Shown here piece by piece: positions 6,901-9,900 of a stretch of DNA of 64,000 bases (positions are counted from its first letter, which is position 1; each line of letters starts with the position of its first letter). The position numbers were made by a program, and so were the translations under genes. The stretch covers positions 49,414,001 to 49,478,000 of the forward strand of contig NC_043005.1 in NCBI RefSeq assembly GCF_006345805.1, in the 5' to 3' direction. Origin of the DNA: Octopus sinensis. Taxonomy: Eukaryota. The notes under the pieces are model-generated. The model was not told where the DNA came from. It did no database searches and worked only from the letters and a program-made list of their open reading frames with translations.

Positions 6901-9900
6901 TATTATGACAGAAATTCAACTTTTCCTTTTCATTAGTCTTTTACTTGTTTCAGTCATAGGACTACGGCCATGCTGGTGCACTGTCTTCAATGATTCAGTT
7001 GAACAAATTGAGTCCAATACCTTCTTTTTAAAGTCTGGTACTTGTTGTATGATTGTTCTTTTTGTTGAACTTCTAAGTTATAGGGATGTAAACAAACCAA
7101 CACTGGTTGTCGAGTGGTGGTGGGAAACACATACACAGACAAACTCACACACACACACACACACACACACACATGCACACACATTCATGTTGAATGGTCT
7201 GCTCGATGGGTAATGTCAGTGTGCATGCACGACAGAGTGTAAATGATTTAAGAGGAAAACTGGGTATAAGAGGCAGCAAATGTTGTGTGCAAGAGAGAGG
7301 ACTATGCTGATTTGGTCATGTGATGCATATGGATGAGGACAGCTGTGCTGAGCTCTAATTTTGGTGGGCATCTACGGATGGTGTAGACCCAAGAAGACAT
7401 GGAACAAAGTGATGAGAGAGGATTTTTGGACTCAGGGCCCAGGGCCTCACTGAAGAAATGACAAAGGAGTGGAAGATATGGCCATTTGCTGTGCTAGATA
7501 AAATGCATCAAGCTAAGTAAAATCACTGTTTTCCACTCATGCAGGCTTGTGCTTTCAAGTGCTGGTGCCACGTAAAAAGCACCCATGTCAGTGCTGCATA
7601 AATGCACCCGTGCCGGTGGCATGTAAAAAGCACATTCTGTTAAGTAGTTGATATTAGGAAGGGCATCCAACCATAGAAACCATGCCACAACAGACAATTT
7701 GGGTTTGGACAGCTACCTGCTTGCCAGCTCCATGTCATACCATCCAACCCATACCAGCATGGAAAGCAGATATTAAACAATGATGATGATATATATATAT
7801 ATATATATATATATATGTGTATATTGGCAGGGCTGGCCAGCTAGGTAGCCGGCCAGAATGCTAGAAGAAGATCATCAACGATCAAACTACAAGGGAAATT
7901 CTCTAGAGGAAGAATTCAGCGAACACCAGAACCAACTTTGGCGGGCAGGACATATGAAAAATTAAATAAATAACAGACTTAAATGCATACCCCGGTTTCG
8001 GTCTTAACAAAAGAATTACTTGCATAAATCAAGTCTCCATGACTTCTTCAGTACATTCGGTCCTCGTGATGCAAACCGCAAGACTAACCCCAGCTCTCTG
8101 TGTCAAGACAGACACGTGCTTAGTCTTACTGATTACATCGGGAATAAAATTTCAAATGTCTTGGTTCTGGCGCGCTGAGAGACTCCTGAAGCGAAGGGCT
8201 GCAGTGAATAATTCACTGCGGATAGTGCTTACAACTAGGGAACGTATTTATTTAAATATTTAAAAATTGAGGGAGATAAATTAATATTAATTTTAATATC
8301 AATTTAAAACCAGTAGTCCAGCATTCAAAAAATCTGAGGAGTCAGAGAAAATTCAAATATATGTGTATATTGGCAGGGCTGGCCAGCTAGGTAGCCGGCC
8401 AGATATATATATACTGAACTTCACAGAACTTCCCGCCGCTAATGGTCATATCTACATACCGAAATCTACCGGTAAATAATTGTTGGTTGTCTGAAAAACC
8501 ATCAAAGAATTATTTACCCTTATTATTATTATTATATATATATATATATATATATATACCGGAGTAAACACATAAATGTGAAACTGTTTTGTTGAATTTT
8601 CTGCTGCTTTAAATAAAGTATATATATATATATATATATAATATATATATATGTGTGTGTGTGTGTGTGTGTCCTTGGCCTAGGGCTAAAGTAGAAGACT
8701 CTTGCATGGTGCTATACAGTGGGACTGAACCTTACCTGCACCTAGTGTAAATATATATTAAATATGCCAATAACATTTCAAAGTAAAATATTGCATCAGT
8801 TCTGAATACTGTTACCATTTTATTTTCTTAAACAGAGATGAAATATTCTGTCAAATTTTGAAACAAATGACCCAAAATCCCTCACAGAACAGTTTATCTC
8901 GTGGATGGCTGCTACTCTTCCTCATTGTTGGTATCTTCCACCCAACCGAAACAGTATGTAGACCTTGAGATCTTTATGATTTCCTTTTGCTAACAATACC
9001 TCTTAAAGTTTATATCAAAGCTAAATTCATCTCTTTCAGCATCTCTTTTTTGTTTTTTAACTTTTTATTTTATATATTTACTACTACTATTGCTGCTGCG
9101 GCTGCTGTTAATTTGATCTGGCAGAATCGTTAGAGCATCAAGAAAAATGCTACACAATATTTCTTTCAGCTCTTTATATTCTCAGTTAAAATTTCATTGA
9201 GGTCAACTTGGATTTTGTCTCACCAGAGTTGTTAAAGTAAAGTACTAGTTAAGTTTTGAGATCAGTAGTATTAACCAATTCTCTCCCCTCAAATATGCTG
9301 GCCTTGTGCCTAAATGAGAAACCAACATCCTTATCAATATAATTATTAGGGCAGCAAGCTAGCAGAATCATTAACACATCAGACAAAGTGCTTAGAAGCA
9401 TTTCTGCCATAACGTTCTGAGTTGAAACTCTACCAAAGCTGACTTTGCTTTTTCATCCTTTTAGAGTCAATAGAATGAGTACCAGTTGAGCAGTCCCATT
9501 GCGTGATACCTTGAGTAAGTGTCTTCTAGTATAGTCCCAGGCTGGCTAATACCTTGTGAGTAAATTTGGTAAACAGGAACTGTGTGGAAGCCTGTTGTAC
9601 ACACATATTTGTGTGTGTGTATCTTTTTGGTTGCAATTGTCCCCTCTCATTGATTGGTTTGTTGACATCCCCAGTGTGGCAAAAGAGACTGCCTGAGTAT
9701 GTACCACACTTAAAAATAAGTACTAGGGTCAATTTGTTTCACTAAAAGCCCTTCCCGTTGGTGCTCCAGCATGACCACAGTCCAATGATGGAAACGATTA
9801 AAATCATCATCATCATCATTCAACATCAGTTTTCCACACTGGAATGGGTTGGATGGTTTGACAGGAGCTAGCCAGTTGGAGAGTTGTCCAAGCTCTAATT

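Follow-up and report, generated by a model that had tools for sequence, protein, structure and literature searches.

Non-LTR retrozymes of metazoans are non-coding tandem repeats with less than 50% GC, each unit of which carries one type I hammerhead ribozyme with a short stem III. They have a self-paired predicted fold and are dispersed as monomers and multimers in genomes that also contain Penelope-like elements (PLEs) (PMC7229834; bioRxiv 10.64898/2026.07.22.740005). Since 2014-2020 it has been proposed that PLEs move these animal elements via RNA circles, on the grounds of co-occurrence and pseudo-LTR similarity. The available text of bioRxiv 10.64898/2026.07.22.740005 argues the PLE link from these two observations and contains no passage on tails or inverted arms.

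Tails, inverted arms and a TA bias are hallmarks of PLEs, and the presence of the tail at one end only of PLE insertions has already been noted (PMC8557442). EN+ PLEs of the Hydra and Neptune clades show 5′ truncation, partial tandems, an inverted 5′-truncated arm and a one-end tail, together with two internal start sites, a (TA)n bias and a hammerhead near their ends (PMC8557442; PMC11167929). In experiments with a purified PLE, synthesis began at two internal sites, which set the limits of the tail, and both strands were extended; the protein has been modelled as a dimer (PMC11167929). The non-autonomous Chlamys elements of green algae, such as MRC1, as a rule have 3′ sequence in common with their helper, and canonical hammerheads are missing from most Chlamys elements (PMC8557442). 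The LTR retrozymes of plants are also non-coding hammerhead retroelements, and circular RNA intermediates are a feature of the plant elements; they have type III ribozymes in true LTRs, a PBS, a PPT, a 4-bp TSD and Gypsy helpers (PMC7229834).

We describe here family X, represented by one copy in a 64,000-nucleotide stretch of Octopus sinensis DNA (the window). Judged from its sequence, X is a dispersed, young and protein-free family of non-LTR retrozymes that is predicted to cut itself, and it shows every feature of such a retrozyme that sequence can test, including all those listed above for the metazoan elements. Its 546-nt unit exceeds the 150-450 nt given in PMC7229834 and falls within the 51-972 nt of bioRxiv 10.64898/2026.07.22.740005. 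X differs from the retrozymes described there in its long loop II, in an A.C closing pair and in that a homologous pseudo-LTR was not found among four PLE families. In contrast to the plant elements, it has a type I ribozyme and a terminal repeat without fixed length. X shares with EN+ PLEs all of the insertion features given above, whereas it has no RT or endonuclease frame and its tail is of ~105 nt rather than 30-40 nt. X inserts like a PLE, yet it is not an autonomous PLE.

The element class is known, and the part worth following is the rule for the ends of the family. In X, the retrozyme insertions themselves bear the signature of PLE integration, and they obey a sharp additional rule, namely one end at a site A, one end at a site B and one template, with the A+B pairing also present in two coding PLE families of the same genome. 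The available text of PMC7229834 and bioRxiv 10.64898/2026.07.22.740005 holds no description of fixed A/B ends, inverted two-arm insertions or (TA)n targeting as seen in X. Our literature search, outside of which lay most subscription journals, Repbase and supplements, found nothing on X or on an A+B rule for retrozymes.

The window copy and its hammerhead ribozyme

The X unit lies on the minus strand. We numbered its 546 nt from position 1 at window position 8403, so that the predicted ribozyme cut follows position 416. The features of the locus are as follows, in window coordinates.

7789 to 7810, no strand: (TA)n target tract at the 3′ end of the element, in keeping with the outer 3′ ends of the family, which run into TA repeats
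7811 to 7857, minus strand: partial second unit (unit positions 1-47), the terminal redundancy, which ends at start site A; one copy of the exact 47-bp repeat
7858 to 8403, minus strand: full 546-nt, non-coding retrozyme unit of family X; it is 5′-truncated at 8403, arm 5′ ends being evenly spread over the unit
7982 to 8057, minus strand: type I hammerhead with a predicted cut at 7988/7987, from its core motifs and from stems that are paired with altered letters in the sister family Z
7912 to 8178, minus strand: long rod, from fold prediction, that would absorb the ribozyme strands in the monomer fold
8201 to 8219, minus strand: short hairpin of 8 bp with a 3-nt loop, from sequence and fold
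8249 to 8261, minus strand: start site B (unit ~143-155), unused as an end in this copy and the place of 87 of the 182 outer 3′ ends of the family
8254 to 8356, minus strand: PLE-type tail of ~105 nt from site A to site B, in which three hairpins are predicted, from family ends and fold
8357 to 8366, minus strand: internal copy of start site A (unit 38-47), from the direct repeat and end sequences
8407 to 8529, plus strand: tail, from A to B, of Y (~574 nt), another hammerhead tandem family, whose tail it matches at 95%; it ends at the B site of Y and stands head-to-head with the X arm
8533 to 8558, no strand: (TA)n tract beyond the Y tail, read from the sequence

The original prediction, made from the letters of this locus, had described an exact 47-bp direct repeat (7811-7857 and 8357-8403) with a spacing of 546 around a non-coding unit, and both points were borne out. 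The longest stop-to-stop frame overlapping the unit is of 97 codons, and a single frame with RT and GIY-YIG, the trait of autonomous PLEs, is absent from it. The 2-kb bins that hold the unit have a GC content of 0.37-0.41, under 50%. The proposed hairpins at 8201-8219 and within the 47-bp repeat are both present. The view that both flanks are (TA)n held on the left (7789-7810) only: on the right, 3 nt and the Y tail precede the (TA)n tract at 8533-8558. Further out, window positions 8559-8618 hold a third short repeat fragment between TA runs, which also occurs in four other fetched loci, and several mobile pieces are stacked in one microsatellite around the X copy.

The minus-strand hammerhead is present, as had been proposed, and is of type I, with stem I at 8057-8052 and 7987-7982, CUGAAGA at 8051-8045, GAAA at 7999-7996 and GUA at 7990-7988. 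The sequence motif predicts a cut between 7988 and 7987 (unit 416/417), at the place given originally. Each X unit has one such hammerhead, composed of a 6-bp stem I, a stem II with A.C at 10.1-11.1 and a long loop, and a 2-bp stem III with a tetraloop. The closing pair of stem II is A.C as against the conserved G-C, with A in 186/186 units and C in 190/196, the other 6/196 having U. A search with Rfam at gathering score returned 0 matches in the whole 64-kb window. The exact 18-nt ribozyme motif had 293 hits in the genome, and the reversed control had 0.

The hammerhead was conserved across copies, an outcome in favour of the original prediction. Its core deviated in 3 of 2086 letters versus ~16 expected from the 0.76% rate elsewhere in the unit, a figure that is not a clean probability as the copies are related. 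At N7, a free core position, A was found in 99 units and T in 86. The catalytic core thus appears to be under selection. Copies with changes in the ribozyme were nevertheless found: both arms of L281 carry G12A, and both units of L292 have GUG at the cut, an A-to-G change exactly at the cleavage nucleotide, which may reflect editing of a circle or an uncleaved donor.

The minus strand folds better than its shuffles as a linear molecule (z -5.8; 0/100 shuffles as good). As a circle, the X unit has a predicted fold of -148 kcal/mol with 62% of positions paired (z -3.9, 40 shuffles). The hammerhead alone is not the lowest-energy structure (z 0.2; -4.7 when forced vs -14.3 when free). By analogy, the X ribozyme would probably cleave as a double hammerhead, given its 2-bp stem III and its common 15.1-16.1 segment, which is self-complementary around tandem G.A. 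Dimer action has been described for short-stem hammerheads of this kind (PMC4209133).

Ends and arms of family X and its relatives

We searched the 2.7-Gb assembly with the X unit and obtained 163 matches in the 40 scored of 1385 candidates, mostly 95-99% identical. A total of 119 X loci was examined, 79 first and then 40 as a check. The insertions consist of 0.1-7 head-to-tail units in (TA)n on many chromosomes. Arms ranged from ~40 to 3761 nt with a median of 558 nt, and 11/113 were over two units long; these lengths are biased upward by the first 30 loci, which were selected for the presence of all 593 bases, and the remaining loci, taken in list order from the ribozyme-motif hits, contain too few of the short arms that do not extend to the ribozyme.

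The outer 3′ ends fell at two places. With six loci left out (L003, L063, L081, L265, L272, L300), 81 of 182 outer 3′ ends were at A (~38-47), 87 at B (~143-155) and 14 elsewhere. A and B are ~105 nt apart and both distant from the ribozyme cut, and together they account for 168/182 ends. Outer 3′ ends ran into TA repeats in 169/182 cases. The 5′ ends were evenly spread over the unit. Ends at the ribozyme cut were considered and rejected: 6/170 of the 5′ ends lay within positions 410-425, versus 5 expected, and one 3′ end was at 417 (L026).

In about half of the insertions, a second arm was joined head-to-head to the first. For the first two-arm count we dropped 10 of the 79 loci: eight that had duplicated arms or at least three pieces, the rearranged L034, and L003, a B+B case whose flanks form a perfect palindrome and which we read as a likely assembly artefact. 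Within this set, 38 of 44 two-arm insertions paired A with B, the other 6 had one end elsewhere, and there was no A+A or B+B. The 40 loci fetched afterwards gave A+B in 14/19 (13 without one duplicate) and again no A+A or B+B, which brings the two sets to A+B in 52/63, with one end elsewhere in the other 11. A purified EN+ PLE showed no strand preference of its two start sites in vitro (PMC11167929), whereas the two-arm insertions of X never use the same site twice.

The two arms of an insertion share a haplotype. We found mismatches in 8/325 diagnostic comparisons over 43 insertions, in contrast to a mean of 37% and a minimum of 24% after shuffling; here and in the other variant counts, we left out columns next to TA, columns 325/327, duplicated arms, the loci L272 and L003, and any locus in three or more pieces. 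None of 44 inversion junctions recurred, which indicates that arms form afresh at each insertion.

In light of these data, the copy in the window consists of one arm that ends at A, with a random 5′ end that by chance lies 47 nt past one full turn. The 47-bp overlap is incidental, the product of a partial tandem with one fixed end and one random end. The original prediction had taken a monomer plus a short overlap as the footprint of the mechanism, and this part was not supported, given that 7811 is a fixed PLE-type start site, that 8403 is one of many evenly spread 5′ truncations and that arm lengths vary widely. Its broader idea of a retroposed, tandem-permuted repeat stood, the other genomic copies being head-to-tail runs with variable ends. 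In both 47-mers of the window, unit position 19 is a T, a letter found there in no other sampled insertion, and this shared private letter indicates that both were copied from one template.

The exactness of the terminal direct repeat would also suit a 499-bp insert bounded by a TSD or a short LTR, or a unit that is the detached pseudo-LTR of a coding PLE, and Xenopus retrozymes do match PLE pseudo-LTRs (bioRxiv 10.64898/2026.07.22.740005). In other copies, however, the 47-mer lies inside the element and leads on into a further unit, and the ends vary, which refutes a TSD, as had been anticipated; the terminal redundancy is variable among X copies, unlike that of a true LTR. Against a detached pseudo-LTR, no sampled copy enters a PLE frame in sense, L034 abutting a PLE fragment in a rearranged form, and the sister family Z, with its 65% identity and same unit size, has no upstream RT match in 25 loci. 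We consider these explanations highly improbable.

Two related families were found. Family Y is a hammerhead tandem of ~574 nt with 852 first-look candidates and a circular fold of z -6.0 (L230-L236); of seven loci, the four with two arms all paired A with B. Its tail at 8407-8529 stands head-to-head with the X arm, and the window could be a two-template insertion, with an A arm from X and a B arm from Y, or two stacked insertions. As a rule, a foreign second arm was rejected, the window's being the only one among 25 single-arm X copies; with a single case, a joint X+Y insertion is indistinguishable from an X arm beside an older Y tail. Family Z is an older sister of X, 65% identical over the whole unit (35% diverged) and of the same unit size, with 137 motif hits. 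Its hammerhead stems are paired with different letters, most copies have the canonical G-C, and the cut triplet is GUU. Judged by eye, Z has the same two end sites (L237-L261; e.g., L240 1003-1613).

Penelope-like elements as putative helpers

Two autonomous PLE families of the same genome follow the A+B rule. The first is a young, Neptune-like PLE with a 781-aa frame containing RT and GIY-YIG, which inserts into TA. Its two ends are ~35 nt apart, 8/8 two-arm cases among 55 loci were A+B, and in three partial tandems the tail was the start of the next unit. Several of its loci carry 781-aa frames (L134 3532-5874, L191, L209, L227), and its hammerhead-like core is degenerate. In L034/L101 (4476-8090), X pieces meet a truncated arm of a Neptune-like PLE with no TA spacer in between, which may result from a template switch or a later deletion.

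The second family is Hydra-like (L335 1381-5400; L302-L331), with a 906-aa open frame, a unit period of 3674 and a tail that leads straight into the frame. The tail is unusually long (~145 nt), the family has a canonical hammerhead with a long stem II and long loop, and 7/7 two-arm cases were A+B. Compared by eye with the clade description, which also names a canonical hammerhead and insertion in (TA)n, the L335 frame has a C-terminal GIY-YIG without CCHH, as well as DKT, CxxC and CxH; RW is present but not RWK, and the CxCX5C linker was not seen. Searches against Pfam and PDB gave no support for this 906-aa frame.

Since two autonomous PLE families obey the same A+B rule as X, and X insertions have the PLE hallmarks of tails, inverted arms and TA bias, a PLE RT is the likely mover, and we hold it very probable that X is moved by a PLE. 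As a guess by analogy, the Hydra-like family may be a better helper than the Neptune-like one, given its canonical long-loop hammerhead and 145-nt tail, as opposed to the 35-nt tail and degenerate core of the latter. A DNA similarity search of four families, three Neptune-like and the Hydra-like one, detected no PLE homologous to X. The likeness of the site-B motif between X and the Hydra-like PLE (14/21 in the copy tested) was no better than that of shuffles and was discarded, and apparent Z matches in PLE loci turned out to be TA-rich noise or neighbouring insertions.

The template and a proposed mechanism

Copying traverses the ribozyme cut site in X insertions, and 93/113 arms were longer than a cut linear monomer permits, so the template must have been ligated or uncleaved. 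Twelve different haplotypes each occur as uniform multimers, with within-arm mismatches in 8/890 comparisons. Nineteen insertion-private changes were fixed in all units of their insertion, one of them in 7/7 units, while 175 private changes were in one unit only and 13 were shared by some units only. From this, a ligated circle is the template that we favor, with moderate confidence.

Several observations weigh against a circle: the A.C closing pair, the masking of the ribozyme in the predicted fold, the copying of the dead ribozymes of L281 and L292, the 13 subset changes, and L008, in which two haplotypes are combined as a mosaic. So do two results from other elements: in vitro, 8 of 9 retrozyme dimers from Xenopus failed to cleave (bioRxiv 10.64898/2026.07.22.740005), and uncleaved RNA was the main substrate of an anole PLE (PMC11167929). 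Within single insertions, the units also differ at positions 325 and 327 (window 8079 and 8077) regardless of haplotype, position 327 being mixed in 18 of 19 carrier insertions. Such mixing within an insertion is not predicted by a single circle. It may be assembly noise, as the letter at 327 is not the same in two duplicates of a single insertion either; the 325/327 variants are present in short-read contigs too. Contigs of three runs that we guessed to be RNA, and that may be DNA, covered 30/30, 29/30 and 27/30 bins, but they contained no joints, none of them spanned the whole stretch, and they carry no weight either way on transcription or circles. Family Z was discovered through the loose ends of these contigs.

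The same element and PLE machinery could instead copy an uncleaved linear read-through multimer, the ribozyme acting elsewhere or in RNA turnover only. This would account for the insertion of copies with an inactive core or cut site (L281, L292) and for the mixing at 325/327 within arrays; internal starts require no circle, and uncleaved RNA was the dominant substrate of an anole PLE in vitro (PMC11167929). However, random 5′ truncation would erode such arrays at each cycle, yet 12 haplotypes are uniform and 19 private changes are fixed. Donor inversion junctions were inherited in 0/44 cases, no two of 25 single-arm copies inspected by eye had the same 5′ flank, and the core appears to be under selection. 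We therefore consider an uncleaved multimer rather unlikely.

Expansion at the DNA level, by a PLE-type insertion of a monomer plus overlap followed by unequal crossing-over between the terminal repeats, was also weighed. The 47-bp redundancy could seed it, 13 private changes do occur in a subset of units, and a local-amplification model has been proposed (bioRxiv 10.64898/2026.07.22.740005). Nevertheless, the 175 single-unit versus 13 subset changes indicate little nested duplication, the private changes common to inverted arms would not be homogenised by tandem crossing-over, and the arrays stay short, with at most 7 units, and dispersed. This makes DNA expansion very unlikely.

With a ligated circle as the preferred template, the following pathway can be proposed. 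X repeats would be transcribed through, giving a read-through RNA for which self-cleavage to monomers is predicted, the active form probably being a double hammerhead. A host ligase would close the monomer into a circle, by extension from PMC7229834. A PLE RT-endonuclease supplied in trans might then bind one RNA at A and B as a dimer and nick both strands of the TA tract. One subunit would prime at A and the other at B, each rolling round the circle for a random distance. The two cDNA ends would be joined head-to-head, or, if one strand alone succeeds, a single arm would result, as in the window. The two fixed 3′ ends, their A+B pairing, the single haplotype, the read-through of the cut site and the same rule in coding PLEs are read directly from the sequences; we infer transcription, cleavage, ligation, the PLE dimer and the identity of the helper.

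More tentatively, X, Z and the look-alike Y might belong to a long-lived, protein-free lineage of ribozyme circles that rides a Hydra-type PLE, and their insertions might record a general rule of one dimer, one circular RNA and two start sites, one per target strand, with rolling on both. We regard this wider reading as possible rather than probable. If it is true, a single rule explains partial tandems, inverted arms and the one-sided tail together, and circles are also used by coding PLEs, where the tail forms the beginning of the element's own following unit. A 546-nt RNA, young copies and long-frame PLE copies are available, which makes the choice between a circle and a multimer as template directly testable. 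The same material makes the origin of the inverted arms and tails of PLEs testable, and X is a handy test case for the movement of such elements.

Other repeats lie elsewhere in the window. A two-arm insertion at 55857-56707 has a tandem unit of ~361 nt and very long TA tracts on either side; its hammerhead-like motif is minimal, the core being degenerate and loop III palindromic. The flanks beyond these tracts mirror each other, so the insertion may partly be an assembly artefact. A PLE copy with Pfam matches to RT and GIY-YIG in two frames is located between TA tracts at 14598-16921 on the minus strand, with an apparent inverted end piece near 17200-17500. On the plus strand, a weak myosin FERM-like match at 24701-25114 is a possible exon, and 58172-58675 is a LINE-type zf-RVT fragment.
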